Shown here: one piece after another, positions 6,963 to 35,213 of the stretch
Numbering within the stretch: position 1 is the first letter of the stretch
Layout of the letters: each line of letters opens with the position of its first letter
DNA from: Clostridiaceae bacterium
GTDB lineage: Bacteria > Bacillota > Clostridia > TANB77 > CAG-508
Reading direction: 5' to 3'
Length of the DNA: 64,000 nucleotides
Assembly: GCA_021771025.1 (NCBI GenBank)
Contig: JAETPW010000008.1
Span: 355-64,354, forward strand
Translations under genes and position numbers: made by a program
Notes under the pieces: generated by a model
What the model was told of the DNA's origin: nothing
Database searches by the model: none
Seen by the model: the letters and a program-made list of their open reading frames with translations, nothing else

Positions 6963-6985
6963 TTTTATTTCATCTCTTTCCTATA

Positions 6986-7018: not shown

Positions 7019-7026
7019 TTCCTATG

Positions 7027-10036: not shown

Positions 10037-10050
10037 GTTATATCCCCTTT

Positions 10051-10962: not shown

Positions 10963-12811
10963 TTTCCTCCTTATTTTTTACATATTTCGCTTGTGTTAAT
11001 CCTGCTATGAAACTATGTCCTATTTCTTTCCAATCTACTTCTTCATTTTTGGTTACTAATAACTCTGGGATGTCTTTGCCAGCTAGCCATATGACTCTCA
11101 TGGCTACATCTGTAAATTCTTCTTTTCTGTTGCCTTTAATGCTATTTAACATTTTGTAGATATAGCTGTCTAATTTATTTTCATTGTTTTCTGCTCTTAA
11201 TTTTTCGTATATTTCATTTCCTAATGTAAACATGACGTGTATTTTTGCATTTGCACTTTTCATTTTTTCTCCCACATCTTGTCCCTCCTTTTTATATAAT
11301 TCTAAATCTGTTTTTGCTTTTATGGCTAATAGATGGTTAATTCCACTTCTTCTGTCTTTTCGTAATTCTTCTCTTAGCCTTTCATTAATAATCATGGTAA
11401 TGTCTTTGTCTTTTAAGATATAATCTACTAAATTTAGTCGATAGCGGTAATCACTAATTTTAGTTAAGGTAGATTCTGCTTGTTCTTTGAAAAATTTGGC
11501 TACATGGCGTTTTATGTTAAAGTATTCCATTCGACTATAAGCTAGATATTCACTTTCAAATTCAACAACAAATATGTTTTGTAGTTGCCATTCACTTATT
11601 TTTTTGTCTTGTTCTACAATGTTCATAATTAAGTCTGTATAGGGGTTTGTTGGTGTATTATGATCTCGTTTGGCTTTGCTACCAAAATAATCATTTGTTC
11701 TTAGTAATGTGTCTACATCTGTATCGAAGTTGATGAAGCTATAGACCTCTTTTTCTTGATAGACTATCCCATTCATGGAATTTTCTTTGACTGTTTTGGT
11801 AATGCTGGTTATTCCTGCTGGGGTACAAAATAGCATTAATTTGCATAGTTCACAAATGGGTAGGTTTGCATTTTGGTTCCAGAAAAAGTTACTCATATTG
11901 TCGTTACTGACTGCTAAAGGAATAAATTTACTTTCTGAATAGTTACATGTTATTTGTTTTTCCTGTTCACATAATTGACAGTGCGATAATACTTTTTCGT
12001 TTAGATATTGTGTTATTTTTTCTATACTTTTACCTTTTTCTAGTTGTTTATTGATATTGGTATATACTTTTAGTATTTCATTGCTTAGTTGTGCTTTTTG
12101 TAATTTTTCTTCCATCTTAATTTTTAGTTCTTGTTCTTGATATTTTCCCTCTACTATTTCTTGTAAGAAATTATTTTCGATGATGTTACTAAGGTAATCT
12201 CTATACATAATTTCTTGTTGTTCTTCAAAAGATAATGCTGTTTTGACTACGTTTAGGAAACTTGGTTGGCCAAAATAATTCTTACTTAAAATACTTTTAA
12301 AAAAGTTCATGGTTAATCGTTTATTTATTTTTTCTTGTTGTATCATTTGTATGATTTGATTAGTTATTTGTTCTAATTTTTCTAGATCTTCTGGACTTTT
12401 GATGGAATCAATTTCATTATAGGCATTTAGTATATTTTGATAGGAGTCTTCTTCAAATTTTTTGATCTTATCCATTTGGTTTTTAATGGTTGTTTTTAAG
12501 TATTTCTTTTCTGTTTTTAACTTATCTTGATTTTTTTTGGTTTCTTCTTTGTTTTCTGTTTTATTTGTGATTAAATTTTCTATTTTTCCTTTTGCTTTTT
12601 CTATTCTCTCTTTGGTTTTATTTCCAATATTATAGGTGTCATAGAAGTATTGGAAGTAATAGTGATGAAAGTTTTGTAACTGATCTGTATCGAATTCTAT
12701 GTAATTTTGTTTTTTGTCGGTAAAATCATCTCCATTATGTTTTAATATTCTGATAAATCCAATAATTCCTGCATTTAAGAACCATTCTCCTAAATAAATT
12801 CTTGTTTTCAC
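10949..12811 (-). CDS. cas8b: Cas8b / Cst1 large subunit
   Basis: The N-terminus GEWFLNAGIIGFIRIL and paired CXXC motifs (CQLCEQE, CELCKLM) are typical of Cst1-type large subunits. 620 aa. Confidence 0.8.
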   Translation of the reverse strand: MKTRIYLGEWFLNAGIIGFIRILKHNGDDFTDKKQNYIEFDTDQLQNFHHYYFQYFYDTYNIGNKTKERIEKAKGKIENLITNKTENKEETKKNQDKLKTEKKYLKTTIKNQMDKIKKFEEDSYQNILNAYNEIDSIKSPEDLEKLEQITNQIIQMIQQEKINKRLTMNFFKSILSKNYFGQPSFLNVVKTALSFEEQQEIMYRDYLSNIIENNFLQEIVEGKYQEQELKIKMEEKLQKAQLSNEILKVYTNINKQLEKGKSIEKITQYLNEKVLSHCQLCEQEKQITCNYSESKFIPLAVSNDNMSNFFWNQNANLPICELCKLMLFCTPAGITSITKTVKENSMNGIVYQEKEVYSFINFDTDVDTLLRTNDYFGSKAKRDHNTPTNPYTDLIMNIVEQDKKISEWQLQNIFVVEFESEYLAYSRMEYFNIKRHVAKFFKEQAESTLTKISDYRYRLNLVDYILKDKDITMIINERLREELRKDRRSGINHLLAIKAKTDLELYKKEGQDVGEKMKSANAKIHVMFTLGNEIYEKLRAENNENKLDSYIYKMLNSIKGNRKEEFTDVAMRVIWLAGKDIPELLVTKNEEVDWKEIGHSFIAGLTQAKYVKNKEENENE

Positions 12812-12825
12812 CTTTTCACCTCCTT

Positions 12826-13605
12826 TTATTTGATTTCGAATACGCCAAACCCGCTACTTCTTTTACTTCCTATACCTGCTTGATATAAGTATTTTAGTAA
12901 TTCTTTGTCTGCTGTTATTTGAAAGGTTCCAATGGATGTTTCTATTTTCTTTTCGTAGAATTTTATGATTATTTTTTTGGCTTGTATTGGTTGGATCGAT
13001 AAACTATCTACTAATTCTGGTGATATATTTGTGATTTTTAATTGTTCTTTTATGTTTATTTTTAAAGTATCTAAAAATTCTTGATGTTCGAATGAATAAT
13101 AAAAGTCTTTTCTGTTTTCTCTGCTTCTAGCGACTAATGGAGATAAAAATTTAATTTGAAGGCTTGTTTCACTAATTTGTTTTTCTGGTATCATACTGAT
13201 GTTTTGTAGTGTCCAAGCATTATGGTGAATAGGGAATTTCTTTCCTTTTTGATGATTAAAGCTGTTGTATAATGCTACAGCTATTTCTGGTTCTGCAATG
13301 GTGAATAGTATTTCGAATCGTTTTTCTTTGAGAGTGATGGTGTCTTGCTCGAATTTTTCACTGCTAAATAATGTGGCAAAGGCATATGGCTTTATGATAT
13401 TGTCTTTGGCATGATAGAGTTTTTCGTAATAGTTTTGGTTGTATTCTGTTAATGATAATTTAATGAAACTCATGATGTTTCTGTGATATTGTATGGGAAA
13501 TTGGTTGTTTTCTAAGGTAAAATATAGTTTGAGTCTCACTTTTTTCACCTCCTTGTTAGGTTTATCTAGTTCTTTTGTTATTATTTTATATGGCAAGTAT
13601 ATCAT
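12826..13605 (-). CDS. cas6: Cas6 crRNA endoribonuclease
   Basis: It has the C-terminal glycine-rich loop GIGSKRSSGFGVFEI and is the first gene of the cas operon. Confidence 0.85.
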   Translation of the reverse strand: MIYLPYKIITKELDKPNKEVKKVRLKLYFTLENNQFPIQYHRNIMSFIKLSLTEYNQNYYEKLYHAKDNIIKPYAFATLFSSEKFEQDTITLKEKRFEILFTIAEPEIAVALYNSFNHQKGKKFPIHHNAWTLQNISMIPEKQISETSLQIKFLSPLVARSRENRKDFYYSFEHQEFLDTLKINIKEQLKITNISPELVDSLSIQPIQAKKIIIKFYEKKIETSIGTFQITADKELLKYLYQAGIGSKRSSGFGVFEIK

Positions 13606-14894: not shown

Positions 14895-15135
14895 TTTCTT
14901 TTCCCCCTTTGTTTTCCCTTCTATTGTACTATCTTGTTTCGATAAAAGCAACTATTTTCTCTGTTTTTCCTTTTTATCGACTTCTTTCGATTTTTGTTTT
15001 TTTTCATATCTTATGGTATACTTGGTAGTTATTTGGTTTATTCTTTCTTCTTTTATGTGAAATCATTAATTTAATCGACATGAGAATACCCTCAAAAGCA
15101 ACTATTGATTAGTTCTTTTGAGGGTATTGGCTAAA

Positions 15136-15169
15136 TAGGGAAGAAAAGGGCGTCCCTTTTATTTCCCTA
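15136..15169. repeat. REP-like GC-rich palindrome, copy 2
   Basis: tagggaagaaaagggcgtcccttttatttcccta. Its right arm supplies the last three codons and the stop codon (I G K *) of the 15159-15698 gene. Confidence 0.85.
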
Positions 15170-15698
15170 TTCCATATCTCTCTGTTTCTGGGTCTTTCCA
15201 TAGGTTTACTTTGGGTGGATAATAGGTAAATACGATAAAACTAATAAAGAAAAATAGTAAAATGATTCCTGACAGTATTTTGGTTGTTATGGTAGATTCA
15301 TTTCCTAATTTCATGATTCGGTAGGCTACCCATTCTCCTAATAGAATACTGATGATAAAGGTTAGTATGTCAACTAGTAAAAAGTGGTATCCTAATATGC
15401 CGGTGTAAGTGTAATAAAATACGATAACAAAACAAATGGCTGTAAATATTCCTATTGTTTTTGCTTCTAAGTATTGGTTGCTTTCTTTTCTTATCCAGAT
15501 GTATTCGATGATTCCTGCTAATAGCATAGGGAAGAATATTAGTTTTAGGTGTTCCCATATGCTTTCATTTACTGCACTAAAGCTTCCTACGATGGCATTT
15601 TGCCCTGACCACTCATATGTGAAGTGTAATAGTGTTCCTAAAATAAGGCTAAATATAACTGCCCCTATTTGGGCTAGTATTAATTTATTTGTTTTCAT
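15159..15698 (-). CDS. Polytopic membrane protein (DUF6512-like?)
   Basis: 179 aa with about 5 hydrophobic segments and an NESIWEHLKLIFFP motif. The family assignment is from memory only. Confidence 0.55.
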   Translation of the reverse strand: MKTNKLILAQIGAVIFSLILGTLLHFTYEWSGQNAIVGSFSAVNESIWEHLKLIFFPMLLAGIIEYIWIRKESNQYLEAKTIGIFTAICFVIVFYYTYTGILGYHFLLVDILTFIISILLGEWVAYRIMKLGNESTITTKILSGIILLFFFISFIVFTYYPPKVNLWKDPETERYGIGK

Positions 15699-17544: not shown

Positions 17545-17561
17545 TAGTTTCTCCTTCCTTA

Positions 17562-17595
17562 TAGGGAAATAAAGGGGACGCCCTTTTTTTCCCTA
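17562..17595. repeat. REP-like GC-rich palindrome, copy 3 (inverted orientation)
   Basis: tagggaaataaaggggacgcccttttttt-cccta is the reverse complement of the unit at 17639. Confidence 0.85.
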
Positions 17596-17623
17596 TTCTC
17601 TTTTTTATTTTATTTTGGTAATA

Positions 17624-17671
17624 TAGGGAATTTTCGGATAGGGAAGAAAAGGGCGTCCCCTTTATTTCCCT
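17624..17671. repeat. REP-like GC-rich palindrome, copy 4, with a 5' extension
   Basis: tagggaattttcggatagggaagaaaagggcgtcccctttatttccct. The extended form is shared with the copy at 61004-61051. Confidence 0.85.
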
Positions 17672-17974
17672 CTTTTTGCCTACTCTTTTTCCTTTTACTA
17701 CCTATTTGGCACAAAAAAATACCTAAAAACAAATATAGAAATCTGTTTTTAGGCAATGTTATGACTTTTTTTCGACACCATTTGGGACTTGAGTAAAATC
17801 TTTTTCTCACTTAAACAAATTTTATATATGTTTCTTCTCTTTTTGCTTTTGGTATTATATCATAGATTTGTTTGAATTGCAAATCGAGATCATTTTCCCG
17901 AATTTATTTTAACTACTACTTTTGTCTGCGTTACTATTATTACTATTCGCAGCTTGCTAAAAATGGTAACCGTG

Positions 17975-18124: not shown

Positions 18125-20203
18125 TTATTCTTCCTTTATAATGGCTTTACTTCCATAATAAGTGGCTAAGAAATACGCTCCATAGATCAGTACGATAAAT
18201 CCTGCCGTGATAGCAATGGAAGTAACCAAATCTTGCTTTCCAAACATGGCTAAAATGATACTACATACTTTGATCCCAAATATAGAGTGAACAACAGCTA
18301 AAGATAATGGAATTAGATAAAAAATTCCAATTTGCTTGAATAGTGCTTTGTTGATCATTTTTTCGTCGGCTCCTATTTTTCGTAAGATTTTGTATCTTTC
18401 TTTGTTGTCTGAACTTTCGGATAATTCTTTTAGGGCTAAAATGGCACTACTAGAGATTAAGAATACTATGCCTAAGTATAATCCAATAAAGGTTACGGTA
18501 GCTGCTAGCCCTTTACTTGCATCGTATATGGATGTTCTCGTATAAGCACTTAAATTGGAAAGTGTTATTTCATTTGCTGCTCCATTTCTATCTGATAGAT
18601 TAGCTATTTTTTGTTCTATTTTGGCTTTTTCTTGTGGTGTGGTTCCTTGATAATTGACATGTAGGTATTCTAGTGTTTTCCCTTCTTCTGGTAAGGCATC
18701 ATCTGGTAAAATGTAGGTTCCTGCTTCCATTGGTTGTGCAGATATAGAATAAAATGCGTTTTGACATTCTAACTTTTTAGGTACATAAGTTTTTCCATTT
18801 ATTTCAATGGTTAGCCCTTTTTGTAATGCTTCATTTCTTAAGTTTTTAATTTCGTCATAATTACAGATGACAACAAATTCGTTGTCTTTTAACGTTAATG
18901 GTTCATTTCCATAAAGTGGAGCAATTTTATTGTATTCTGATAGTTTCATGATCGGTTCTTTGCTAGTTAAGTCTACTGCAGAATAATCTTTTTTTATTTT
19001 TGCTTCTATTGGTTTAAACGAGTCAATTTGTTTTAATGTGTCTGTGGTATACACATAGGTAGTAATGGCTTCTGAGAAGTCTTGATTTACGTCTATTCCG
19101 GCTTGCTGCAGGCTATCTTTTATGCTTATTTTTGCGTTTTCGGCTTCTTGTTTACTATACGTTCCTGTATATGGCTTTTTTTCTCCTTCTGCTATGTTTA
19201 CTCTTTTATTGAAGGTCGCATCAATTGGGGTATATGTTTTTAGTTGGGTGGTTAATGTGTTGTTGATGGACATGGCTGAGGAAAATATACAGATGGTTAA
19301 AAATAGTAGTACACAAATCACGCTCATGGAAAATACAGTAGTATTAATTTTGCTGTCTATTTGCCTAAGGACAAACATATTTAGGTCTTTTTGATAGATT
19401 TTCTTTCTGGTTTGGATTATTTTTAACATAAACCCAGATAAAGAATAGAAAAAGAGAAATGTTCCTATACAGCCTAATCCAATGGCTAGAAAGATTGGTA
19501 GAATATCTGCTTGTGTTATCTTGGTAATGGCTAAATAATAGGCAGATCCTAAAATTCCTATTGATAGGATAAAGATGATGACCGAGATGATTGGGCTTTT
19601 GATTTTGATTTTTTCGTTTTTATTTTTGGCTGTGATTAGGTCGATTAGTTTGTATTTTGAGGTGGCAAATACATTAATCACCATAACACATAGATAGATG
19701 ATAGCAAAATAGACTAGTGTTTTGATTAAGGCATCTTGTGAAAAGATGAATTGGTAATTGCTCATGTCTGCTTCAAACATTTTGGATACTAGTATAGACA
19801 TGAGTTGTGAGGCAAATATTCCGATGACTAATCCTATAGCTAAAGAAAAGATTCCTACTAATAGTGTTTCTAATAAGAGAATTTTAGAAATTTTTCCTTT
19901 TCCCATTCCTAGTAACATATATAGTCCAAATTCTTTTTTTCTACGTTTGATTAAGAAATTATTCGCATACACAATTAAGAATCCTAGAACAAATGAAATG
20001 AATACAGATACTCCTCCTAAGACTTGTGTCATTAAGTCCATGATTTGTTGTTTTGACTCTGACATCTTCATCATGGCTTGTTGGCTATCCATACTGTTGA
20101 AGATGTAAAAGATAGCTACCCCTAGAACCAAAGTGAGAAAGTAGATCACGTAGTCCTTCATGTTTTTTTTCATGCTTTTGAAGGCTAGTTTAAATGACAT
20201 CAT
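18125..20203 (-). CDS. BceB-type (FtsX-domain) ABC transporter permease
   Basis: 692 aa. It has an N-terminal FtsX-like TM bundle, a large central extracytoplasmic domain and a second TM bundle. It overlaps the upstream ATPase gene. Confidence 0.8.
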   Translation of the reverse strand: MMSFKLAFKSMKKNMKDYVIYFLTLVLGVAIFYIFNSMDSQQAMMKMSESKQQIMDLMTQVLGGVSVFISFVLGFLIVYANNFLIKRRKKEFGLYMLLGMGKGKISKILLLETLLVGIFSLAIGLVIGIFASQLMSILVSKMFEADMSNYQFIFSQDALIKTLVYFAIIYLCVMVINVFATSKYKLIDLITAKNKNEKIKIKSPIISVIIFILSIGILGSAYYLAITKITQADILPIFLAIGLGCIGTFLFFYSLSGFMLKIIQTRKKIYQKDLNMFVLRQIDSKINTTVFSMSVICVLLFLTICIFSSAMSINNTLTTQLKTYTPIDATFNKRVNIAEGEKKPYTGTYSKQEAENAKISIKDSLQQAGIDVNQDFSEAITTYVYTTDTLKQIDSFKPIEAKIKKDYSAVDLTSKEPIMKLSEYNKIAPLYGNEPLTLKDNEFVVICNYDEIKNLRNEALQKGLTIEINGKTYVPKKLECQNAFYSISAQPMEAGTYILPDDALPEEGKTLEYLHVNYQGTTPQEKAKIEQKIANLSDRNGAANEITLSNLSAYTRTSIYDASKGLAATVTFIGLYLGIVFLISSSAILALKELSESSDNKERYKILRKIGADEKMINKALFKQIGIFYLIPLSLAVVHSIFGIKVCSIILAMFGKQDLVTSIAITAGFIVLIYGAYFLATYYGSKAIIKEE

Positions 20204-20957
20204 TTAACTCACCTCCCAGTAGAGTAACCACTTCTATGATTTTACTAAAGAATTCTTTTCTGGTGTTACTTCCTCGTTTTAGTTCATTGAAGATTTTTCC
20301 GTCTTTGATGAATAAAATTCGGCTGGCATAGCTTGCGGTAAAGGCATCATGGGTTACCATTAATATGGTAGCTCCTAAGGTTTTGTTTAAGTATTCAAAG
20401 TTTTCTAATAATTGTCTTGCTGATTTTGAATCTAAGGCTCCTGTTGGCTCGTCAGCCAATACTAATTTTGGATTGGTGATAATTGCTCTACTAGAGGCTA
20501 TACGTTGTTTTTGCCCTCCTGATATTTGGTAAGGGTATTTTTTGAGAATCTCTTTTATGCCTAATTTGTCAGCAATTTCCTCTACTCTTTTTTTGATTTC
20601 TTTGGGATTTACTTTTTGGATGGTTAAGGCTAATGCAATATTTTCGTAGCAGGTTAAAGTATCTAATAAATTAAAATCTTGGAAGATAAATCCTAATTCT
20701 TCTCTTCTGAATTGATTTAATTTGTTTCCTTTTAATTTGGTAATGTCTTGATTATTGATATAGATATTTCCCGCAGTTACTCTGTCTATGGTGGAAATAC
20801 AATTTAATAACGTTGTTTTTCCGCTTCCTGATGCTCCCATGATTCCCACAAATTCTCCACTTTCCACGGTGAAGGAAATGTTATCTATGGCTTTGGTAAT
20901 GTTTCCTTTGTTTCCATAGTATTTTTCAATTTGTTTCACTTCTAATATTTTTTCCAT
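20190..20957 (-). CDS. BceA-type ABC transporter ATP-binding protein
   Basis: It has Walker A (GASGSGKTT), the signature ISGGQKQR and Walker B (LADEPTGALD). The start is placed at MEKILEV after AGGAG. Confidence 0.88.
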   Translation of the reverse strand: MEKILEVKQIEKYYGNKGNITKAIDNISFTVESGEFVGIMGASGSGKTTLLNCISTIDRVTAGNIYINNQDITKLKGNKLNQFRREELGFIFQDFNLLDTLTCYENIALALTIQKVNPKEIKKRVEEIADKLGIKEILKKYPYQISGGQKQRIASSRAIITNPKLVLADEPTGALDSKSARQLLENFEYLNKTLGATILMVTHDAFTASYASRILFIKDGKIFNELKRGSNTRKEFFSKIIEVVTLLGGELNDVI

Positions 20958-21011: not shown

Positions 21012-21076
21012 ATTATACACGGAGTTTTGTTTTAGTACAATTGATTTATCTTACTGATTTCTTACAGTTTTGTAAG
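21012..21076 (-). promoter_or_regulatory. Candidate Bce operon promoter with an upstream inverted-repeat box
   Basis: On the minus strand I read TTGTAC (21035-21040), a 17-nt spacer, then TATAAT (21012-21017). The palindrome CTTACA-N4-TGTAAG lies at 21061-21076, 20 nt upstream of the -35. It resembles the TNACA-N4-TGTAA boxes I recall for BceR-type regulators. Confidence 0.45.
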
Positions 21077-21088
21077 ATTGATCTTTTC

Positions 21089-21283
21089 CTATATCATGAT
21101 TTCATGGCTATTTTCTTTTAGCCATTGATCAATTTCTCGGTAGTTTGGGATAAATTTTTCTACTAGTTGGTAGAACTCTTTTTGGTGATTGGGATAAATC
21201 ATGTGGCAAAGTTCGTGTACGATGATGGCATCGATTTTATCTTTGGGTAGTACGATTAGTCGATTACTGAATGGCAGTTTTTA
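21089..21283 (-). pseudogene. Orphan 3' fragment of a DUF45/YgjP-like metallohydrolase gene
   Basis: 21090-21250 is 160/161 identical to 28159-28319, after which identity decays over ~33 nt. It encodes ...IDAIIVHELCHMIYPNHQKEFYQLVEKFIPNYREIDQWLKENSHEIMI* with no N-terminal part. Confidence 0.9.
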
Positions 21284-21426
21284 TCTTTGAGATATTACTT
21301 TTACGGTTTTATTTTTCCAATATTTTCCTATATATGCTTGACAAAAGAACGTAAAAGTATTAACATAATGTATATTATATGTATTTGCCACATATTTCAT
21401 AGTATGATAACACAAGGAGGTATAAC

Positions 21427-22689
21427 ATGAAAAAAATGTCTTACAAAGATAGTATTATAACAGCAAAACAATTTTCAGCAGTAGATATGAAAACCGGAAA
21501 AACAATATGGTTTTCACGTTCACGGTCTCCACAACATCTTTACCCTTTAACAGAGAAGGATTATTGTGAAGCAATTAAGTATGCAGTTCAACATGGAGTG
21601 GATCAAATTCCTATCCTTTCGGTGAGCGCAAAAGATTACCCTTATTGCGATTTCGATTGTAAGGATTGTTTGGCTTGCCCAAGCAGAAAATGGGCTATTA
21701 AAGATAATCATATCAAATATCCTATTATTCCTCTTAATAAATACAAAAAAATTTTAAAAGAAATTTCCGCTTACTCCACTAGACGTGGATTTAATTCTGT
21801 TAGATTTGAAGTTTGTGGAGAAGGAAATCCAGACTTATATAAGGATAGGATTAAAATGTTAGAATATGCCAATCAAAACTGTAATATGGGAATTGTTTAT
21901 GTGAGTACTGGCAGTCAAATATCTGATGATTTATTAGATTGTTTGGTAAATAATGTTGCCTTTATTAGAATTAGTTTTCCAGGAATTTCATCAGAAGCTT
22001 ACCAATTATATGCTAATCAAAAATCTCGAGAACATAATTTCACTTTTGATGATGCGATTCGTTTGTTAGATAAACTCTGCAATGCAAGAGCAAAATTTGG
22101 AAGAGAAGATTCTTTATTAATTGGTACCAGAACATGTATTAGACCACTAAATTCTGGTTACTACGATAAGTTCATTAGTACTATTGCTACAATTGGTGTA
22201 GATGTATTTCAAGGCGTAAAAGTTCTTATTCCCGATTTTGAAAGTGTTAAAGATGAGATTGTTTCTCAAGAAGTTATCGAAGAGCTGGTAGCCCTTAAAG
22301 AAACCTCTTATTCTTATGGACTTAAAGATTATCAAATTCCTAATGACTTGAATACTATTTATAATAATAGGGCGATGGTAGAAAGAGAAAAACCCACAAA
22401 ATGTTGGAGTTCTCTTATTTCTCCTCCATTATATGGTACGAATCTTATGTGCTGTGTACTTTGGGATAGAATTACAGATCTCAATTACCACTATGGCATA
22501 TTGGAGGGAAAAGAATATGAACTCGAAGAGTTAATGCATGGTGAAAGAGCAAAATTTATTATGGAGAATTGTCCTAAAAATTGTACAGAATGTTGTTCTT
22601 TCAAAGACAATAGTTTTATGGAAAGTTTGTGGCGCGTATTGAGAATTCATGAAGACTTGAATTCTGTGAAATTTATCACAAATTACTAA
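21427..22689 (+). CDS. Radical SAM enzyme with a C-terminal SPASM/twitch-like Cys motif
   Basis: The SD AAGGAGG is present. It has CX3CX2C (C74, C78, C81: CDFDCKDC), a GEGNP SAM-binding motif, C326-X10-G-X4-C342 and C382-X3-C-X2-CC. Confidence 0.8.
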   Translation: MKKMSYKDSIITAKQFSAVDMKTGKTIWFSRSRSPQHLYPLTEKDYCEAIKYAVQHGVDQIPILSVSAKDYPYCDFDCKDCLACPSRKWAIKDNHIKYPIIPLNKYKKILKEISAYSTRRGFNSVRFEVCGEGNPDLYKDRIKMLEYANQNCNMGIVYVSTGSQISDDLLDCLVNNVAFIRISFPGISSEAYQLYANQKSREHNFTFDDAIRLLDKLCNARAKFGREDSLLIGTRTCIRPLNSGYYDKFISTIATIGVDVFQGVKVLIPDFESVKDEIVSQEVIEELVALKETSYSYGLKDYQIPNDLNTIYNNRAMVEREKPTKCWSSLISPPLYGTNLMCCVLWDRITDLNYHYGILEGKEYELEELMHGERAKFIMENCPKNCTECCSFKDNSFMESLWRVLRIHEDLNSVKFITNY

Positions 22690-22709
22690 TCTAATCAATA
22701 CGTATAATC

Positions 22710-22736
22710 GAGTATGTTCTAGTATAGAACATACTC
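22710..22736. terminator. Bidirectional hairpin between the convergent radical SAM and HIT-like genes
   Basis: gagtatgttcta-gta-tagaacatactc is a 12-bp perfect stem. Confidence 0.6.
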
Positions 22737-22741
22737 TTCTC

Positions 22742-23221
22742 TTATTTAAAATTTTCTTTTATTATATCAATACAGTTTAATACTTCCTCTCTGTAATGAC
22801 TACTTACATTGAGAATGTTTTTAGCGTAGATCCCCATTTGGCTAAAATCAGAATGAAATTGATATGTCCATTCGTGCTTTGGTATAAAATTAATATGTAA
22901 ATATCCTGAACTTGATTCATCTTGATAAATCATTACTTTTTTAAATCCAGATTTATGCATTGATTCTAACAATCTACTTGATAAATCAATCAATTTGTTC
23001 CTTTCTGCTTCTGTTAAATCTGTTATTGTGTGGATAGGCTTATTTATTGCTAAAATCATATATCCTTTTATAGGAATTTCAGGATCTGTTGCTATATTAA
23101 AAAGTCCATCATCATATACATAACTCCCTGGAAAGTTTGTTATTTCATGGTTAGCAATAGCATAACTCAAATTCCCTTCAAATTCCATAAATTCCCCTAA
23201 CCAATTCAAAATTTTGTTCAT
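22742..23221 (-). CDS. HIT-superfamily-like protein with a degenerate histidine triad
   Basis: It has a HIT-like core (IPIKGYMILAINKPIHTITDLTEAE...), but the triad position reads YLHINFIPK, so one His is retained. It is a paralogue of the C-terminal half of 26397-27143. Confidence 0.55.
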   Translation of the reverse strand: MNKILNWLGEFMEFEGNLSYAIANHEITNFPGSYVYDDGLFNIATDPEIPIKGYMILAINKPIHTITDLTEAERNKLIDLSSRLLESMHKSGFKKVMIYQDESSSGYLHINFIPKHEWTYQFHSDFSQMGIYAKNILNVSSHYREEVLNCIDIIKENFK

Positions 23222-23764
23222 CTATTTAACTCCTTTTCTATTTTGTATAAAATCTTTTAAACAATTTAATTCAAACTCAAATTCATATCTTGTAAATGTG
23301 GTATTTTTTTTATTATTTTCCCCAATAGAATGTATAATATATTTGTTACAATTATTTAATATACCCCTATATATAGGATTTTGTATTGCAGATATATATA
23401 ATTCATCTACTAATAATTTGTATTCCTCGCTATCTCTTTCTATCTCTTTTCCTTGCCAATAAATTATTCCTTTTTCTTTCCAGTCATAATTTGTGGCAGC
23501 CTTTACATGAACTGCTTGTGTACCATAATATGAAAATATATAGTTCTGTACCTTTTTATCCTTAAATTTAATGCCTTGAAAAAAGTTTTCAATACTTCTC
23601 AACTTCTTTCTTCGGAACTTAAAATCATAAGGAAATAAATTCGATAACATTTGAGCAAAATCACCTTTATTTTTATACCCAACATCAACCCAATTTTCAG
23701 TTTCACTAATTCTATTACCGTTCACTATCCTGTAGTATTTCATTATTACAATATATACATCCAT
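23222..23764 (-). CDS. NADAR (YbiA/DUF1768)-like protein
   Basis: LSNLFPYDFKFRRKKLRSIENFFQGIKFKD ... DWKEKG resembles the NADAR signature (LSNF..F....SxEhxFQaxKF). The stop abuts the next start (TAGATG). Whether the start is M1 or M8 is uncertain. Confidence 0.45.
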   Translation of the reverse strand: MDVYIVIMKYYRIVNGNRISETENWVDVGYKNKGDFAQMLSNLFPYDFKFRRKKLRSIENFFQGIKFKDKKVQNYIFSYYGTQAVHVKAATNYDWKEKGIIYWQGKEIERDSEEYKLLVDELYISAIQNPIYRGILNNCNKYIIHSIGENNKKNTTFTRYEFEFELNCLKDFIQNRKGVK

Positions 23765-23841
23765 CCTTTTGAGTTAATTCTTTTTGTATGAATTTATAAT
23801 TAGTCTTAAACTCTAAAAAATCCTTCAATTCTCTTTTTATT

Positions 23842-25485
23842 TTATTCATCTCTACCTCTATCCTGAAATGGTATATCCCTAATTATTTCTTTAATCTGTT
23901 CTTTTAGTTTTATACATAAAAATGCTGAACTTTTTTTTATTTTTTCACCAGTCATATCATATAAATTGATACCTGAATCTTTTGAATATTTCTCTGCTAG
24001 TTGCAATAATACTTGAATGTCCTGAGTCTCAGCTTGTCTAAGTCCTTCTTGTTTCATCATTTTAACATAAGCATCTCCATTTTTTTCTTTTAAGGCATTA
24101 ATAGAATCCCTCATAATCCAATATCCCGGATCATCTAAAATTGTTAAAAAATCAACTGTTTTGACATCAAAAGTAGAATGATCCAGTTTTCCATGTTTTA
24201 CTTGATTATAGAAATCCCAATTATATTTAATTGCACCATATTTACAAGACCTACCCCTTTTTTCTAGTTCTTGCCTAAGAGTATTCATTGTATTGCAAGA
24301 AGCAACATTATCATCAATAAGTACAATCTCATTTTCTGTAGTATTCCATAAGTTATTGCTACACAAGTCTTCAAAATTTTTTTCATCAGAGATATTTCTT
24401 AATTTTTCATCTTTAGAATATAAGCTAAATAATATATTGGTATAATCAAAACCATACATACTTTTTAATATTGGTCCTACAAAAATTGAGCCTAGTCCTG
24501 GGGTTAGTATGTGTTTTTGTTTGCTAAATTTCAAGTTTGAACAGAATATATATAAAATTTGTTTATTATCCATTTCAATATGTCTTTCCAAAATTTTACT
24601 ATCACCTTCTGGCAAATCATATAATGGTTTTTGTAATGGTTCATTGTTAAATAATCTTACTAAATTTTCGCAATCTTCTTCAAAGCATTTTTGTGCAGCA
24701 ACAACATTATTTTCTTTCTTCTCTATCATTCTTTTTAGCTCTTCAAAATAGACTTTGCCAGATGCATTAGATAAGTATTCAAGTATTACAAAGTTTCTTT
24801 TTGAATCATCTTCAGTTAAAATTCTTCCTAAATTCTTTCTTTCACAAGCAAGCTCGGAATATGACTTTGCTTTATAATATGATGCATTTCTTGATAAATA
24901 CTTTCCATTGCTTAATGGCTCTACTAAATTTTCAACTCCAGTATTATCTTCTAAATCAATTAAACCATTTGAATCAAATTCATATAGATGAACTTTTTGA
25001 TTTTCTTTTATAATTTCCTCTGTTTTGTATAAAACATCTCTTCCCTCATCTTGATAAAAAACTGTATATTTACAATTTTTTTTATAATCTTTAATTATTA
25101 AATTCCCGTTTTCTATTTTATATGAAATATTTCTATCTTTAATTTTAGTATATATTACACCATCTCGAATTGAAATATTGTTATTTATAATGTCTTCTAA
25201 CGTTTGCCCTGTACTTAATAAGTATTTTTCAAATTTGCTAAACTGCTTTAAAAATTCATGATTATGAAGTGTATTTCTGTCTGCACCTTTACTTTTTAAA
25301 TATTTCAATAGTTTTACAGAATATTGTGGTTTTACAAAAATATTATTATTTTCAACAATTTTTTTCCATTTTTCATCATCATATTCTTGTGAGTCAGGAG
25401 CTAATGAAATAATATAATTTTTTTTATCAAATTTTATACATATACCTCTTTTTCTATCTTCTTTTTCTTTAAATATTTTTCTCAA
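23842..25485 (-). CDS. 547-aa protein with an unknown N-terminal region and a C-terminal phosphoribosyltransferase-like motif
   Basis: ILTPGLGSIFVGPIL ... NEIVLIDDNVASCNTMNTL resembles a PRPP-binding loop (hydrophobic run-DD-x-x-x-x-x-T). The start is TTG. I did not recognise the N-terminal ~320 aa. Confidence 0.4.
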   Translation of the reverse strand: MRKIFKEKEDRKRGICIKFDKKNYIISLAPDSQEYDDEKWKKIVENNNIFVKPQYSVKLLKYLKSKGADRNTLHNHEFLKQFSKFEKYLLSTGQTLEDIINNNISIRDGVIYTKIKDRNISYKIENGNLIIKDYKKNCKYTVFYQDEGRDVLYKTEEIIKENQKVHLYEFDSNGLIDLEDNTGVENLVEPLSNGKYLSRNASYYKAKSYSELACERKNLGRILTEDDSKRNFVILEYLSNASGKVYFEELKRMIEKKENNVVAAQKCFEEDCENLVRLFNNEPLQKPLYDLPEGDSKILERHIEMDNKQILYIFCSNLKFSKQKHILTPGLGSIFVGPILKSMYGFDYTNILFSLYSKDEKLRNISDEKNFEDLCSNNLWNTTENEIVLIDDNVASCNTMNTLRQELEKRGRSCKYGAIKYNWDFYNQVKHGKLDHSTFDVKTVDFLTILDDPGYWIMRDSINALKEKNGDAYVKMMKQEGLRQAETQDIQVLLQLAEKYSKDSGINLYDMTGEKIKKSSAFLCIKLKEQIKEIIRDIPFQDRGRDE

Positions 25486-25511
25486 ATCATTATTCTTTAA
25501 ATCTTTTTCAT

Positions 25512-26336
25512 CTACAAAAAAATTGTAAACACTAATTTTTTTTGTTCTTCTTTTGTAAATACACTTTGTATCACATTTTTAGTAAACATAAAAAGATCTA
25601 CAATTCCATTTATATTTTTTCTATTATTTAGGTATTTGCATATAAATTTTAATTTTAAATCAGTTCTTTGATTATCATTAATTCCTTCTCCATTATATCT
25701 TGTTCCTAACAGTTTAATTGCAGTTTTTTGATCTTTTTGTAATATTTCTTCAGTATTTTCTAATTTTATTTTTAGTAAATTCAAGAAATCATCTAGATAT
25801 ATACCATCACTCTTATAACCAATACTATCATCGATTTGTTCTAATTCTTTATCATTTATAAAACTAATATTTTTTACTTTTCCAGCATAAAGTTTATCAT
25901 AATACTTTTTTGAAGCAAAATTATTTGTTCTCAATCCTACTTGCATTTCTACTAAATCTGTTAACGGATCAACAATATATGAATTACCTTTTTTAGTTTT
26001 TATCATCAAATCAATATGTTTAAATTCATCATTAAAAGGTGATATTAACTCAGAATCTATATCAAAATTCTTTTTTAATAGTTCTTTAATTATATTGCAA
26101 TAACTTTTACAAACAATATTAAAGTCTTGTATATTACTTAAATCAATTTTCTTGTTATATATATCATTTCTAGCTTTTACATTCTCTTTATCTAGAAAAA
26201 ATGTATAATCTCGATAAAAGATCTTAGAAGTCTGTTTTATGACATATCTTACAATTGCCATTTCATGTATGTCTCCACTAAATTTTTGTATTTTATTCAT
26301 ATTTACATTTTCTTTGCAAAATTCAAATAAATTCAT
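25512..26336 (-). CDS. Hypothetical protein, possibly with a Cys-His-Asp (transglutaminase/papain-like) core
   Basis: 274 aa. NIVCKSYCNIIKELL ... FKHIDLMIKT ... NSYIVDPL fits a C...H...D spacing. This is a weak, motif-only call. Confidence 0.25.
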   Translation of the reverse strand: MNLFEFCKENVNMNKIQKFSGDIHEMAIVRYVIKQTSKIFYRDYTFFLDKENVKARNDIYNKKIDLSNIQDFNIVCKSYCNIIKELLKKNFDIDSELISPFNDEFKHIDLMIKTKKGNSYIVDPLTDLVEMQVGLRTNNFASKKYYDKLYAGKVKNISFINDKELEQIDDSIGYKSDGIYLDDFLNLLKIKLENTEEILQKDQKTAIKLLGTRYNGEGINDNQRTDLKLKFICKYLNNRKNINGIVDLFMFTKNVIQSVFTKEEQKKLVFTIFL

Positions 26337-26396
26337 GTTATCTATATCCTTTTTTATAAAGTCTAAGGGAGAATATAGTATCCTCCCTTTTTTTAG

Positions 26397-27143
26397 CTAA
26401 TTAGACTCAAAGAAACTTCTTACTTTTTCTGCAAATAATAGACATTCCTTTTTTTGTTTATCTGTCATATTTTTCTTTGCATACATTGTAATTTTCTTAA
26501 GATTTTTCCCTCTTCCAAATTGGAACATCCAATCATCAGAAGGAATAATCCATCTCCTATAGTGCTCTGAAAAACCATCTTCAAACAGAAGAATATTTTT
26601 GGCTCCTAAATATTCTAATGCTAGTTTTACTCTATTGGTAATATCTTCTATTTGAATTCTTTCACCTCGTGTAAGTTCGGTTGTAGTAGATATATGTTTT
26701 TTTATTCCTATAACAATAAATCCAATAATTGGAACTTCTGGGTCTATCGTTACATTAATAAAATTATCTTCATATAGATATCCACCAGGTAAATTTGTAA
26801 TTGTATGATTTCCTATGGCACAACTTTTACAGCCTTCAAAAACCATCTCTTCGTTTAAGAAGTTAGTAACAGCTACTTCTTCTCCTTTTTGATTTAAGTA
26901 GCATTTTTTTCCTTCCTTCTCAACAACTCCCAGTCTATTTTGGAAATCATCAGCTTTATCATATCTTATTTCGCATATTTGTTTTCCTTTTTGATTGATA
27001 TATCCCCATTTATTTTTTATCCTAACTGCTGCAACATTTTCGCAAAAATCCCGTACTTCATCATAGATAAAATCACAAATAGGTTCATCATTCTCATTTA
27101 CAAATGCCCATTTCCCTGATATTTCTTTTTTCCTGTATAACAT
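26397..27143 (-). CDS. WG-repeat domain fused to a degenerate HIT-like domain
   Basis: The N-terminus has KWAF/KWGYINQKG repeats (WG-containing repeat type). The C-terminus has CKSCAI plus a HIT-like core, but the triad position reads HYRRWIIPS. A strong SD (AAGGAGG) is present. Confidence 0.5.
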   Translation of the reverse strand: MLYRKKEISGKWAFVNENDEPICDFIYDEVRDFCENVAAVRIKNKWGYINQKGKQICEIRYDKADDFQNRLGVVEKEGKKCYLNQKGEEVAVTNFLNEEMVFEGCKSCAIGNHTITNLPGGYLYEDNFINVTIDPEVPIIGFIVIGIKKHISTTTELTRGERIQIEDITNRVKLALEYLGAKNILLFEDGFSEHYRRWIIPSDDWMFQFGRGKNLKKITMYAKKNMTDKQKKECLLFAEKVRSFFESN

Positions 27144-27237
27144 AGATTGACCTCCTTATGGTACTTTGAAAGATAAAATAAGAGTTAATTAGCTAAAAAT
27201 AGTAAAACTATGCACTTATTATACTACGTATATCGTT

Positions 27238-28020
27238 TTATGTCAATTTCCTAAAATTTAATTTCTTAATCATTTTTTCTCCAATAATTTCTATTTCATC
27301 TGGTTTCATATGATGTTTCATATTTTTTATTTCCATAAGTTCTATTTCTGGTCTATCTTTTATAAATTTATATGTATCTTTAATTGGTGCAGTATCATCT
27401 AAAGAACCTTGAATAATAAGTATTTTCCTTTTTTCATGATAAGTATTATATAAATCATTTTTTACTAAATCTTCGTAAAAAGAATAGGGAACTTCTATTT
27501 TTCCATTATGTCCAGATTTAGCTTTTTTATCGTTTCTATATTGTGTAAATGGTTCTTTCAATAAACTATTTATGAAAATATCTTTCATGTTAAATGCAGG
27601 AGATCTTAATATTATATTTTCATAATCTGACTTATCTCCTATTAGTTTGTTTAATAATATATATGCTCCAAAACTAATGGCAAAAAAAGAGATTCTTATA
27701 TTGGAGCTATATTTATTTTTTATATAATCAATAACATTATTAATATAAGAAATACATACATCTACTGTCAATTTATCTGTTCCTTGAACACTATCAATAT
27801 GCCCAGGAAAATCAAAAGAGATCGATTCTATACCATACTGTAATAATTTTTCTGCAACTATTTTGATTGAATTACTGCTTTTCCCACTGCAAAACCCATG
27901 ACAAAATATAAAAATTTGATTATTCATTTTTTTTCCATCATCATAAAATATCTTACCTTTTATCATACATTTTTCTTTTTTATTATAAATATCTATATTT
28001 TTTTCCATTCTTGCTATCAT
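27238..28020 (-). CDS. Alpha/beta-fold hydrolase
   Basis: It has IFCHGFCSG (oxyanion region), the nucleophile elbow AISFGA, IIQGSLDDTAP (acid) and MKHHM (His). Confidence 0.65.
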   Translation of the reverse strand: MIARMEKNIDIYNKKEKCMIKGKIFYDDGKKMNNQIFIFCHGFCSGKSSNSIKIVAEKLLQYGIESISFDFPGHIDSVQGTDKLTVDVCISYINNVIDYIKNKYSSNIRISFFAISFGAYILLNKLIGDKSDYENIILRSPAFNMKDIFINSLLKEPFTQYRNDKKAKSGHNGKIEVPYSFYEDLVKNDLYNTYHEKRKILIIQGSLDDTAPIKDTYKFIKDRPEIELMEIKNMKHHMKPDEIEIIGEKMIKKLNFRKLT

Positions 28021-28157
28021 TCCTTCCTTGCTATATTTTCAAAGGCATAAATTATTTTTTCTGCCTTAGTTCCTACTATTAATAAAGCTAAAAAATTTAC
28101 ATGTAATTCCATGTTTGCCTTAGTACTTGATTTTAATTACTTTTATTCTCTTTTTTG

Positions 28158-28913
28158 TTATATCATGATTTCATGGCTATTTTCTTTTAGCCATTGATCA
28201 ATTTCTCGGTAGTTTGGGATAAATTTTTCTACTAGATGGTAGAACTCTTTTTGGTGATTGGGATAAATCATGTGGCAAAGTTCGTGTACGATGATGGCAT
28301 CGATTTTATCTTTGGGTAGCATGATTAATCGATTACTAAATTGGAGTGTTTTTTTCTTGGGGATACAACTACCAAATTTACTAGTAGCGTCTCTTACCTG
28401 AAATGACTGATAGGGTATTTGCGTTTTTTTGCTCCAATAAGGTACTCTAATTATTAACCATTCTTTTGTTTTTCTTTGCCATAGTTTTTTTATGTTTTTG
28501 TCAATTTGTCGTTTTCTTTCTTCTTGGGATATGGTAGAAAAAATTAGAGGTAGTGATAGTTTTATGGTTTTTTGGGTTTCCTGAATTTCAATTTTCAGGC
28601 TATTTTTAGGGAAGTCTTCTACTAGAATTCGGTACGTTTCCCCTTGATATAACATTTTTTCTCCTGTATACCAATGTTTTATGGTTTGATTTTCTTTTTG
28701 GTTGATTTTCTCGTATTGCTCACTTATTGTTTCCTTATTTTGTTCGATGATTTTTAGTAATTCTTTTTGTTTCATTCTTGCTGGTTTACTGATGTTTAGT
28801 GTATTTCCTTTGAAGTACATTTTTAGTGTGCAAGAGTTTTGGTAGTTTCTTACGATGATGGGAATCTGTTTTCCTTTTATTGGTAGATAATATTTAGCCT
28901 CTCCCATGTTCAT
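28158..28913 (-). CDS. DUF45 / YgjP-like zinc metallohydrolase (full-length copy)
   Basis: It has the HELCH (HExxH) motif and the C-terminus NHQKEFYHLVEKFIPNYREIDQWLKEN. I prefer the start at MNMGEAKYY after AGGAG. Confidence 0.75.
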   Translation of the reverse strand: MNMGEAKYYLPIKGKQIPIIVRNYQNSCTLKMYFKGNTLNISKPARMKQKELLKIIEQNKETISEQYEKINQKENQTIKHWYTGEKMLYQGETYRILVEDFPKNSLKIEIQETQKTIKLSLPLIFSTISQEERKRQIDKNIKKLWQRKTKEWLIIRVPYWSKKTQIPYQSFQVRDATSKFGSCIPKKKTLQFSNRLIMLPKDKIDAIIVHELCHMIYPNHQKEFYHLVEKFIPNYREIDQWLKENSHEIMI

Positions 28914-28968
28914 TTTCTCCTTTTTCTCTTTTTTCTTTTTCTCTTTTTTCATTAAAAGCATTTAAAAT

Positions 28969-29140: not shown

Positions 29141-30070
29141 TTAAAAACTTCTTGAACTTCCTCCTCCACCAGAAGAACCTCCGCCTCCGTGGAATCCGCC
29201 GTCCTCCGCCTGAGAAGCCTCCTCCAGAGAATCCGCCTCCACCGGAAACCTCCTCCTCCGTAGAAGCCTCCGTCCGCCAAACCCGATGAATCCTCCAAAG
29301 TTCACTAAGATTAGGTTAACGACGAAGATGACGATTCCTGTTATTATGCTTTGCGTTAAGAAATAGGTTAGTCCTGCTATAGCAATTAGATAAATCATCT
29401 TACCTATTTTACCTTTTTTCTTTCCTAATCGAGCAATAAGAGAAGAAAATACTATGCTGACAATAAATATACTCGAAAAGGCAGATGTGCCAGCTGTTTG
29501 TTTCGTTGGTTTTACTTGTTCTGCTCCTTCAATTGTTACTTGGTACTCGCCCGCAATTTCTTGTAATAGGGCATTAAATCCCTTTTTTAGTCCGTCATTA
29601 TAGTTATCGTTTTTTAGATCGGGTACCATGTATTCGTCTTGAATTCTTCCTGTTTTTCCATCGGTTAGTCTTCCTTCTAGTCCATAACCAACTTCAATTC
29701 TAAGTTTTCTTTCCCCTGTTGAACATAGGATGAGAACTCCATTGTTTTTTCCTTCTTGCCCAATTTCATAGGCACGGAATACTTCATTAGCATATTCTTC
29801 TACCGTTTTTCCTTCTAGGCTTTTAACGGTTACTACTGCGATTTGTGCTTGTGTTTTTTCTTCTAGTTTTTGGGCCATTTGAATCATGTATTGCTTTGTT
29901 TCTTGCTTTAATACTCCTGCTTGGTCGTTTACGTACTTCTCACTAGTCGATGGAGCAGGAAAAGCTTGGGCTGTAGATGTTAGAAAAAAAATTGATAATA
30001 TACCCATTATGACAATGGCACATAAAATTCCTCGTAAAAATTTTGTTTTTGTCCTAATCAAATTGGACAT
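29141..30070 (-). CDS. TPM-domain (YgcG-like) membrane protein with a Gly-rich tail
   Basis: It has a signal/TM segment, a TPM core (VNDQAGVL...AVVTV...GVLIL...RIEVGYGLEG), two TM segments and a Gly-rich C-terminus. The start is at MSNLIRT after AGGAGG. 29201-29272 appears to be read out of frame (see findings). Confidence 0.8.
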   Translation of the reverse strand: MSNLIRTKTKFLRGILCAIVIMGILSIFFLTSTAQAFPAPSTSEKYVNDQAGVLKQETKQYMIQMAQKLEEKTQAQIAVVTVKSLEGKTVEEYANEVFRAYEIGQEGKNNGVLILCSTGERKLRIEVGYGLEGRLTDGKTGRIQDEYMVPDLKNDNYNDGLKKGFNALLQEIAGEYQVTIEGAEQVKPTKQTAGTSAFSSIFIVSIVFSSLIARLGKKKGKIGKMIYLIAIAGLTYFLTQSIITGIVIFVVNLILVNFGGFIGFGGRRLLRRRRFPVEADSLEEASQAEDGGFHGGGGSSGGGGSSRSF

Positions 30071-30620
30071 TTGGAACCTCCTTGCTTCCTTCTGAAGCTT
30101 CAAAATAATCTTTTTGTTCATAGCCAAACATGCCTGCAATTAAATTTGTTGGGAATTTTTTTACTTTTACGTTGTAAGTATTAACGGCATCATTGTAATC
30201 TTTTCTGGCTACTGCTATTCTATTTTCTGTTCCTTCTAATTCATCAGCTAATTGAGCAAAGTTTTGTGATGATTTTAAATCTGGATAATTTTCAACCACA
30301 ATCATTAAACGATTTAATGCACTGGTTAATTCTCCATCTGCCTCTGACTTTTCAGCAACCGTTCCTGCTCCTGCTAATTTTGCTCTTGCTTCAGTTACTG
30401 AATCAATAACCTCTTTTTCTTGGCTAGCATATCCTTTTACGGTATTGACTAAATTTGGAATTAAATCTGCTCTTCTTTGTAACATCGTATCAATCGTGGC
30501 AAATTTGTTATCCACTTCCTCTGATTTAGAGACGATTCCATTGTAACTAATTCCTAACATTCCAATAATAAGCACAATAATTACTGCTATTACTAGAATG
30601 ATGATAGTAGATTTTTTCAT
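30054..30620 (-). CDS. lemA: LemA family protein
   Basis: 188 aa with an N-terminal TM segment and LemA-like sequence throughout (LQRRADLIPNLVNTVKGYA..E). It overlaps the TPM start, which is the classic LemA-TPM pairing. Confidence 0.85.
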   Translation of the reverse strand: MKKSTIIILVIAVIIVLIIGMLGISYNGIVSKSEEVDNKFATIDTMLQRRADLIPNLVNTVKGYASQEKEVIDSVTEARAKLAGAGTVAEKSEADGELTSALNRLMIVVENYPDLKSSQNFAQLADELEGTENRIAVARKDYNDAVNTYNVKVKKFPTNLIAGMFGYEQKDYFEASEGSKEVPNVQFD

Positions 30621-30762
30621 GATTATTTCCTCCTTTTCCTCAAGGTTTTTTGAGGGCTTTTTTTCGTTACCTTGGTGTGATTATATAATTTTTTTCTTTA
30701 AATTGCAAGGGTTCGGTTAAACTCTTGGTTAGCAACTCCCAGATCGCTCCCAGATCAAATTT

Positions 30763-30850: not shown

Positions 30851-30855
30851 GAAAA

Positions 30856-35196: not shown

Positions 35197-35213
35197 TTTT
35201 CTCTCCTATTTTT

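Follow-up and report, generated by a model that had tools for sequence, protein, structure and literature searches.

A duplicated DUF45 gene end flanks a foreign gene cassette in a Clostridiaceae bacterium and may be the scar of a recombinase-free insertion

We have analysed a 64,000-nucleotide stretch of DNA (the window) from an uncultured Clostridiaceae bacterium (assembly GCA_021771025.1, contig JAETPW010000008.1, positions 355 to 64,354 of the forward strand) in which two near-identical copies of the 3' end of a DUF45/YgjP-like gene bracket a block of unrelated cargo genes. An earlier note on this DNA had described the layout as an intact gene, 6.9 kb of cargo and an orphan 3' end beside the promoter of bceA, and the window sequence bears this out. 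We consider the chances about even that the repeat is the scar of a recombinase-free, Campbell-type insertion-duplication brought about by homologous recombination, with later exchange between the two copies.

A repeat search of the window returns direct repeats at 21084-21282 and 28153-28351, offset by 7,069 nt and forming one two-copy family; no other long direct repeat is present across the 64-kb window, the CRISPR array aside. Pairwise alignment of the core (21090-21250 against 28159-28319) gives 160 identical positions out of 161 (99.4%), with the sole mismatch at 21167/28236, as had been reported. The repeat is the 3' end of the DUF45 gene and terminates within its stop codon. At this gene-distal end identity is lost at the third base of the stop, which is TAG in the orphan (21089-21091) and TAA in the intact gene (28158-28160). 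The intact terminus reads ...ATGATATAA and then enters cargo DNA, and the orphan terminus reads ...ATGATATAG and then enters the bceA promoter. The gene-internal end was earlier seen as a decay of identity over ~33 nt. The decay is real and proves to be composite: three differences at 21251-21259 give way, past 21259, to a patchily similar stretch of ~20 nt that holds an in-frame stop (13/20 matches in register; p~0.001 relative to window positions chosen at random). The match beyond about 21290 is not clearly over background. The features that define the insertion are as follows.

28158-28961, minus strand: intact DUF45/YgjP-like metallopeptidase-like gene (Pfam YgjP-like, 7.8e-44)
28153-28351, minus strand: repeat copy B, the 3' end of intact DUF45 with its HELCH motif; near-identical core at 28159-28319
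28021-28157, minus strand: 137-nt flank of junction J1 on the cargo side, with the third stop-codon base as its first; no relation to the empty site or to the cassette flanks of other species
21283-21337, unstranded: cargo-side flank of junction J2, unique to the occupied locus of this species
21089-21290, minus strand: orphan 5'-truncated DUF45 3' end, holding repeat copy A (21084-21282), with stop TAG at 21089-21091
21012-21076, minus strand: native bceA promoter, with a BceR-box-like inverted repeat CTTACAAAACTGTAAG (21061-21076) and a -10 element TATAAT (21012-17)

The DUF45 coordinates are those of the longest open reading frame (ORF), for which gene callers choose 28913 or 28952 as the start. 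Contigs L011, L012 and L119 have the same protein among their gene calls.

Relatives with an unoccupied site establish the direction of the change. Within the same species, contig L004 passes directly from DUF45 to bceA with no cargo, and L119 and L120 carry the order LemA-TPM-DUF45-bceA-bceB with a DUF45 protein 100% identical to that of the window. The flanks of L119 match the window at 99.4-99.6% DNA identity. Both states occur among the samples of one study, the site being empty in SRR10090140 and SRR10090122 and occupied in SRR10090142 and SRR10090148. In a sister species (L121-L123; DUF45 67% identical in amino acid sequence) the order is response regulator-histidine kinase-LemA-TPM-DUF45-bceAB-DEAD helicase...Cas6, again without the cargo. 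The uninterrupted DUF45-bceA junctions in both species show that the 6.9 kb is an insertion, and the synteny of the sister species indicates that the empty state is ancestral. The earlier note had allowed that its reading would fail if no relative possessed such a junction. This is not the case, since in the alignment with related genomes that it proposed DUF45 abuts bceA in L004, L119, L120 and L121-L123. The empty site contains exactly one repeat copy. In L119 and L120 this single 3' end is of the intact type through the diagnostic T (equivalent to 28236) and then continues into TAG and the bceA promoter. The insertion left the promoter intact, and the same promoter is conserved at unoccupied sites, in the sister species and in relatives whose BceA is 85% identical. 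The cargo has a GC content of 21-28% compared with 31-38% in the flanks, and is therefore foreign.

Both junctions are also well supported as physical features of the chromosome. J2 (cargo-orphan-bceA) is spanned by the independent contigs L001 (ENA, mouse gut) and L005, and J1 (DUF45-cargo) by L011, L012 and L016. The recurrence of both novel junctions in independent assemblies shows that they are not an assembly artefact. Short-read unitigs do break at the repeat, as would suit an assembly that had collapsed or duplicated it or had fused two strains into a chimera. Set against this, both junctions have spanning contigs that come from independent samples and assemblers, and the repeat copies have copy-specific single-nucleotide polymorphisms (SNPs) and different stop codons, so that the probability of an artefact is negligible and the earlier concern about an assembly duplication falls away. 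The 137-nt J1 and 58-nt J2 flanks show 100% identity among all occupied contigs and are absent from the rest of the material retrieved, from which it follows that the junctions have a single origin. Similarity between the two sides is confined to TATA plus AAAAGA at J1 and to the 13/20 patchy microhomology at J2. No clear promoter or terminator was found in the J1 flank.

The fine structure of the repeat records subsequent recombination. Two types of orphan share the one J2 junction: type W (the window, L005, L013/14) and type M (L001, L111, L114, L115). Relative to the intact copy, the type W orphan has a synonymous TTA>CTA change, a conservative ATG>GTA change and the CAA/CAT site at 21167. 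In type M, five of the six single-base differences fall at third codon positions (p~0.02 by our calculation), and there is in addition a GAG>TTT codon change. These third-position and synonymous differences argue that the orphan derives from functional DUF45 alleles and not from pseudogene decay in situ. Between L111 (type M) and the window there are 86 SNPs, all of them within 21149-26508 and none in 26509-28188. Their density reaches about 10% in the orphan, compared with 1.6% in the cargo, and the bceAB flank of an M-type sample is 99.94% identical to the window. The SNP tracts thus identify the locus as a mosaic of homologous-recombination tracts, and the orphan has been overwritten at least once by another DUF45 sequence. 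A sister-species DUF45 allele was considered as the source of the divergent 5' patch of the orphan and was rejected on comparison. The window has T at 28236 with TAA in the intact copy and A at 21167 with TAG in the orphan, and the empty allele of L119 combines T with TAG. A single reciprocal crossover between the 28236 SNP and the stop codon, in either direction, is what would produce the one configuration from the other.

These observations suggest the following course of events. An illegitimate join at the microhomology patch near DUF45 codon ~190 would have linked a ~7-kb foreign cassette to a ~180-200-nt piece of the DUF45 3' end running through the stop codon. The joined molecule, most simply a circle, would then have entered the chromosome by a single homologous (RecA-type) crossover in the 3' end of DUF45. 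Such a crossover would necessarily yield, on one side, an intact DUF45 gene that owes its extreme 3' end and its TAA to the incoming molecule and is followed by the cargo and, on the other, a 5'-truncated orphan with the native TAG and an untouched bceA promoter. The ~180-nt repeats would remain substrates for gene conversion between the copies and for exchange with the alleles of other strains, and pop-out of the 7,069-bp unit would probably restore the empty DUF45-bceA site. In this sequence we infer that the intermediate was circular, that its entry depended on RecA and that the steps came in this order. The insertion would be tolerated by selection because DUF45 and the regulation of bceAB are both undamaged. 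Selection also explains the apparent 'design' of the site, in that harmless insertions are those that keep the DUF45 frame and fall within the ~13 nt between the stop codon and the BceR box.

Campbell-type insertion-duplication is the way in which a non-replicating circular DNA carrying a gene fragment integrates, and is the basis of insertion-duplication mutagenesis in streptococci and other Firmicutes. The locus resembles the product of such an event in having direct repeats of the size of a homology segment, one intact and one 5'-truncated gene copy, and no dedicated recombinase, and in that recombination between the repeats would restore the original site. More specifically, the ~180-nt repeat matches the DUF45 3' end colinearly, and its length and identity suffice for RecA-type recombination; the copy joined to TAA and cargo is complete, the copy joined to TAG and the bceA promoter is 5'-truncated, and the empty allele has one copy. 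The patchy microhomology at J2 is as expected of an illegitimate join. The repeat is also a genuine gene end, and its length far exceeds that of typical att cores. Of the fall-backs offered in the earlier note, a cassette mobilised by homologous recombination is the one that best fits the evidence. The case differs from experimental Campbell insertions in being a natural event, in involving a 7-kb accessory operon and an extra ~20-nt patchy segment, and in that the circle and the involvement of RecA are putative.

Several points weigh against this reconstruction. No circle or excision junction was seen, although the unitigs break at the repeat and so are unable to show one, and no terminal overlaps were found in the cassette contigs. 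A 7,070-nt Logan contig present in 18 samples (L111) was considered as a candidate circle and rejected, since its length follows from unitig breaks at a 59-nt shared segment and its ends do not overlap. No donor locus with the cargo beside DUF45 was found outside the species, and a prior illegitimate join between cargo and DUF45 is required. The single-crossover SNP configuration can also arise through later recombination under the competing explanations, L119 may either never have been occupied or have been secondarily emptied, and a route for the uptake of circular DNA is presupposed in an uncultured organism.

The short, patchy similarity at both junctions would also suit a one-step illegitimate insertion with a long target duplication, arising by microhomology template switching or by double end-joining across sister chromosomes. 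Here copying of DUF45 would switch to foreign DNA at the stop codon, proceed through ~6.9 kb and return ~180 nt upstream at the microhomology, generating both junctions and the duplication in a single event, with the SNP mosaic following from later homologous exchange with other alleles. The identity of the junctions at all occupied loci, which points to a single event, agrees with this, as do the lack of a recombinase and the presence of the cassette at unrelated sites elsewhere (see below), which implies that illegitimate insertion is its usual route. Under such a scheme, however, the two copies should have started out identical, so that the allele-like, mostly third-position differences of the orphan need extra recombination, and no duplication of any length is seen at the other insertion sites. 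We regard a one-step origin as unlikely. A related precedent is homology-facilitated illegitimate recombination (HFIR) in naturally transformable bacteria, in which a homologous anchor is combined with a microhomology join and which, in its linear form, typically deletes recipient DNA. As in HFIR, one homologous anchor and one microhomology join would here have brought in foreign DNA without mobility genes. In contrast to linear HFIR the anchor is duplicated, which points to a circular substrate or a sister-chromosome event.

Four or more further loci, in other uncultured gut Clostridia, carry the same six-gene cassette, each protein being 52-87% identical in amino acid sequence.

L109/L110: cassette between cysS and PNP_UDP_1
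L105/L106: cassette beside an adenylate kinase gene (ADK)
L116/L117: cassette between a polysaccharide deacetylase gene and dapB
L102 (9150-10722): cassette beside RepA_N and NUDIX genes

At these loci there is no internal recombinase and no adjacent DUF45, and neither DNA nor translated comparison detects flanking direct repeats. Conservation across species spans only the interval from the ribosome-binding site and start codon of the hydrolase gene to the promoter of the radical SAM gene, and the DNA in the window that came along with the cassette, belonging to neither cassette nor DUF45, amounts to about 190 nt. The earlier reading of the repeat as the footprint of an element that integrates into a gene's 3' end, taken here as site-specific recombination dedicated to DUF45, is not supported, given the occurrence of the same cassette at four or more loci that lack DUF45, repeats and recombinase, and the search it suggested for the same cargo at DUF45 genes in other taxa found none. 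The position of the L102 cassette hints that in that genome it may be borne by a plasmid or another element. A prophage or plasmid origin of the cargo was itself considered and set aside; there are no relatives in IMG/VR, GenBank phages or PLSDB plasmids, yet the L102 cassette does lie beside a RepA_N gene.

In three settings the five-gene arm of the cassette lies downstream of a host gene and is codirectional with it. It follows PNP_UDP_1 in L109 (16499-17209) with overlapping stop and start codons, dapB in L116 (7376-8119) after a 20-nt gap, and DUF45 in the window across the gap at 28021-28157. The five-gene operon may be transcribed by read-through from the upstream host gene.

The portability of the cassette bears on whether the locus is instead an att-flanked island whose integrase has been lost, in the manner of the cis-mobilizable elements (CIMEs), or acts in trans, with the repeats as attL and attR and the 3' end borne by the element. 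Phage 21 and e14 at icd, and the integrative and conjugative elements (ICEs) ICESt1 and ICESt3 at fda, integrate into the 3' end of a protein-coding gene and bring a replacement end. Like them, the locus has the classical order of intact gene, element and orphan with the function of the target preserved, precise empty sites, and an orphan (type M) that differs from the intact end by synonymous changes of the sort seen in phage-borne replacement ends. Unlike these elements, which use a tyrosine integrase and a short core, it has no integrase and a ~180-nt identity block, much longer than usual att cores, and its cargo sits elsewhere without repeats. Thus flanking repeats and precise empty sites are found as in integrative elements, and a recombinase is not. 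CIMEs are att-flanked islands without recombination genes, derived from ICEs and known from Streptococcus thermophilus, and they share with our locus a non-autonomous segment between direct repeats at the 3' end of a gene. They differ in coexisting with cognate integrase-bearing ICEs that have the same att sites. No integrase-bearing partner was found at the same site in the DUF45 contexts (L004, L119-L123, L018-L020 and the window) or in viral, phage and plasmid searches, in a species that is poorly sampled. An att-flanked origin is disfavoured by the absence of an integrase from the cargo of >25 samples and from the window ORFs examined, by the mere 190 nt or so of non-cassette DNA that accompanies the cassette, by the four or more other loci without att-like repeats, DUF45 or recombinases, and by the lack of phage, plasmid or viral-contig matches. 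Overall we consider it decidedly improbable.

Pfam, NCBIfam, PADLOC and PHROGs scans detect no recombinase, integrase or transposase domain in the cargo ORFs, as the earlier note had observed from the sequence, and the seven tightly packed ORFs fill the cargo and leave no space for a further gene. An insertion sequence or transposon was rejected on the grounds that there are no terminal inverted repeats at the cargo ends, no transposase and a duplication of ~180 nt. An element exploiting the Xer system (IMEX) was likewise rejected, on the grounds that a Bacillus-type dif query, the single consensus tried, has 0 matches in the window at up to 3 mismatches and that the repeat is coding sequence and not dif-like.

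Going beyond Campbell-type entry as such, the cassette could be a homology-driven mobile unit that has captured the DUF45 3' end as a portable arm, with a 7,069-bp circle re-entering similar DUF45 alleles harmlessly and a cargo whose SPASM radical SAM, PRTase-domain, NADAR and HIT-like proteins make up a new nucleotide/ADP-ribose anti-phage system, possibly switched by an A8/A9 tract (described below). We think this extended picture quite unlikely to be right.

The six cargo genes are as follows.

27238-28020, minus strand: gene 1, alpha/beta hydrolase (Pfam Hydrolase_4, Abhydrolase_1)
26397-27143, minus strand: gene 2, WG repeats and a C-terminal HIT-like domain (Pfam WG_beta_rep)
23842-26336, minus strand: gene 3, 831-aa protein with a type I phosphoribosyltransferase (PRTase)-fold domain (AlphaFold2 pLDDT 89; Foldseek matches APRT and HGPRT)
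23222-23764, minus strand: gene 4, phage-type NADAR of the T4 gp30.3/AdfN family, 180 aa (Pfam Phage_30_3, 3.4e-24)
22742-23221, minus strand: gene 5, HIT-like protein of 159 aa, paralogous to the C-terminal domain encoded by gene 2
21427-22689, plus strand: gene 6, divergent radical SAM enzyme with a SPASM/twitch-like C-terminal Cys cluster and conserved CxxxCxxC at C74/C78/C81
21338-21366, plus strand: promoter of the radical SAM gene, TTGACA-17-TAACAT, conserved in an alignment over 6 loci and located by a promoter scan; the cassette boundary on that side

The hydrolase probably starts at the conserved MEKNIDIY at about 28008, a start kept across loci. The product of gene 3 belongs to a family that is almost always 830-831 aa long, and a Pfam scan of it gave no match. 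In the window this gene is split into ORFs of 274 and 547 aa by an A8 run at 25536-25543, where intact alleles have A9. The A8 allele is also present in L011 and L013, the latter with a second frameshift, and the gene is intact in L014 and L111. The tract could reflect decay or could be a slippage-prone on/off switch. The earlier suggestion of a decayed island therefore holds in respect of this 1-nt frameshift in the largest cargo gene of the window and is otherwise not supported.

The NADAR protein scores 85.6 bits against a Phage_30_3 cutoff of 36 and is accordingly a true member of that family; gp30.3 is a NADAR/AdfN protein (PMC11125620; bioRxiv 10.1101/2024.07.11.602962). The 159-aa protein is 35-37% identical to the C-terminal domain of the WG-repeat protein (26397-26870), the two being paralogous. 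Each has a degenerate version of the histidine-triad motif (LHINFIP and HYRRWIIP), and PDB profile matches to HIT proteins are no more than weak (E 0.2-0.7).

The homologues of the radical SAM protein form a small, wholly unannotated family. The protein itself has weak matches to Radical_SAM and viperin models, all under their cutoffs. Its confident AlphaFold2 model (pLDDT 93) has DesII, SkfB and anSME as its nearest solved structures, with a TM score of about 0.5, and is closer to SPASM/twitch enzymes than to viperin, which it matches only at the radical SAM core. Identity as a prokaryotic viperin (pVip) was rejected, the NCBIfam viperin model giving 29.9 bits against a cutoff of 180. The PADLOC pVip match to the gene is weak and limited to the radical SAM core, and apart from this one viperin-type hit no PADLOC model matches the cargo. 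Sequence searches of the PDB with four cargo proteins gave no match.

The gene order of the locus is response regulator-kinase, LemA, TPM, DUF45, the seven cargo ORFs (28020 down to 21427), orphan, promoter, bceA and bceB, and all genes of the cargo region are on the minus strand except that for the radical SAM enzyme, which is on the plus strand. The native neighbours are listed below.

31975-32655, minus strand: BceR-like response regulator
30856-31866, minus strand: BceS-like kinase
30054-30620, minus strand: LemA
29141-30139, minus strand: TPM-domain protein
20190-20957, minus strand: bceA (Pfam ABC_tran), native neighbour downstream of DUF45
18125-20203, minus strand: bceB, native neighbour downstream of DUF45; in related loci an FtsX-type permease comes next

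In most of 80 BceA relatives (70-86% identical; L022-L101) no more than ~100-250 nt separates bceA from a BceS-like kinase gene upstream of it. In a few, 1-9 kb of other DNA lies between bceA and the nearest such kinase gene. In the lineage of the window and in the sister species (L121-L123), LemA-TPM-DUF45 is interposed between bceRS and bceAB. The bceS-bceA gap may be a recurrent insertion site. A metagenome scan with BceA returned relatives of up to 86% identity, none of them with DUF45 or cargo and none from the window species, and a genome-collection scan with DUF45 returned only relatives of up to 53% identity without synteny.

Elsewhere in the window, a CRISPR array with the 30-nt repeat CTTTAAATTCTAATATATTTATATAATAAC (3386-4832) adjoins type I-B-like cas genes (5286-13605), of which Cas1 and Cas6 are confirmed by Pfam and the others are assigned by position and size. 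A defence-type cluster at 33889-45902 comprises a C5 cytosine methylase (Dcm), NERD plus SF1 helicase, an MZB-domain protein, a 1,020-aa helicase and GmrSD, together with a UvrD-like gene that is broken into two ORFs (42127-43365 and 43427-43972). GC-rich palindromes of ~49 nt (GGGAAG..GGGCGTCCCC..) form a family of intergenic elements at 6973-7021, 15123-15171, 17550-17598, 17626-17674 and 61006-61054. The gap that separates LemA from the BceS-like kinase gene holds a hairpin at 30760-30853 (46+46 nt, 98% complementary) whose GGGGACGGGG core is similar. These sequences may be REP-like elements or terminators.

Defence-system cassettes without mobility genes of their own sit in chromosomal hotspots or defence islands. 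The cassette is like them in being a compact, sporadic, low-GC operon, found here among CRISPR-Cas, GmrSD, methylase and helicases and at different loci in each species. It differs from known defence cassettes in that its role in defence is that of a candidate, and we regard a new nucleotide-based system, for immunity or of the toxin/antidote type, as a reasonable possibility. The footprint belongs to a known kind, of which it is a further example, and the cargo genes are uncharacterised.

To our knowledge, the movement of compact accessory or defence operons that lack mobility genes is poorly documented, and most such insertions are scarless. The clean scar described here is accompanied by an unoccupied counterpart in a matching strain background and by an ancestral unoccupied site in the sister species, and this makes the mechanism of gain and loss testable, in that homologous recombination predicts crossovers spread over the repeat and a site-specific mechanism predicts a single position. 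The conserved operon unites a radical SAM enzyme, a phage-type NADAR and a PRTase-domain protein, is sporadic in gut Clostridia and lies here amid CRISPR-Cas and restriction-type genes. Its footprint would represent one way in which accessory, possibly anti-phage, cassettes enter and leave the chromosome without a recombinase of their own.

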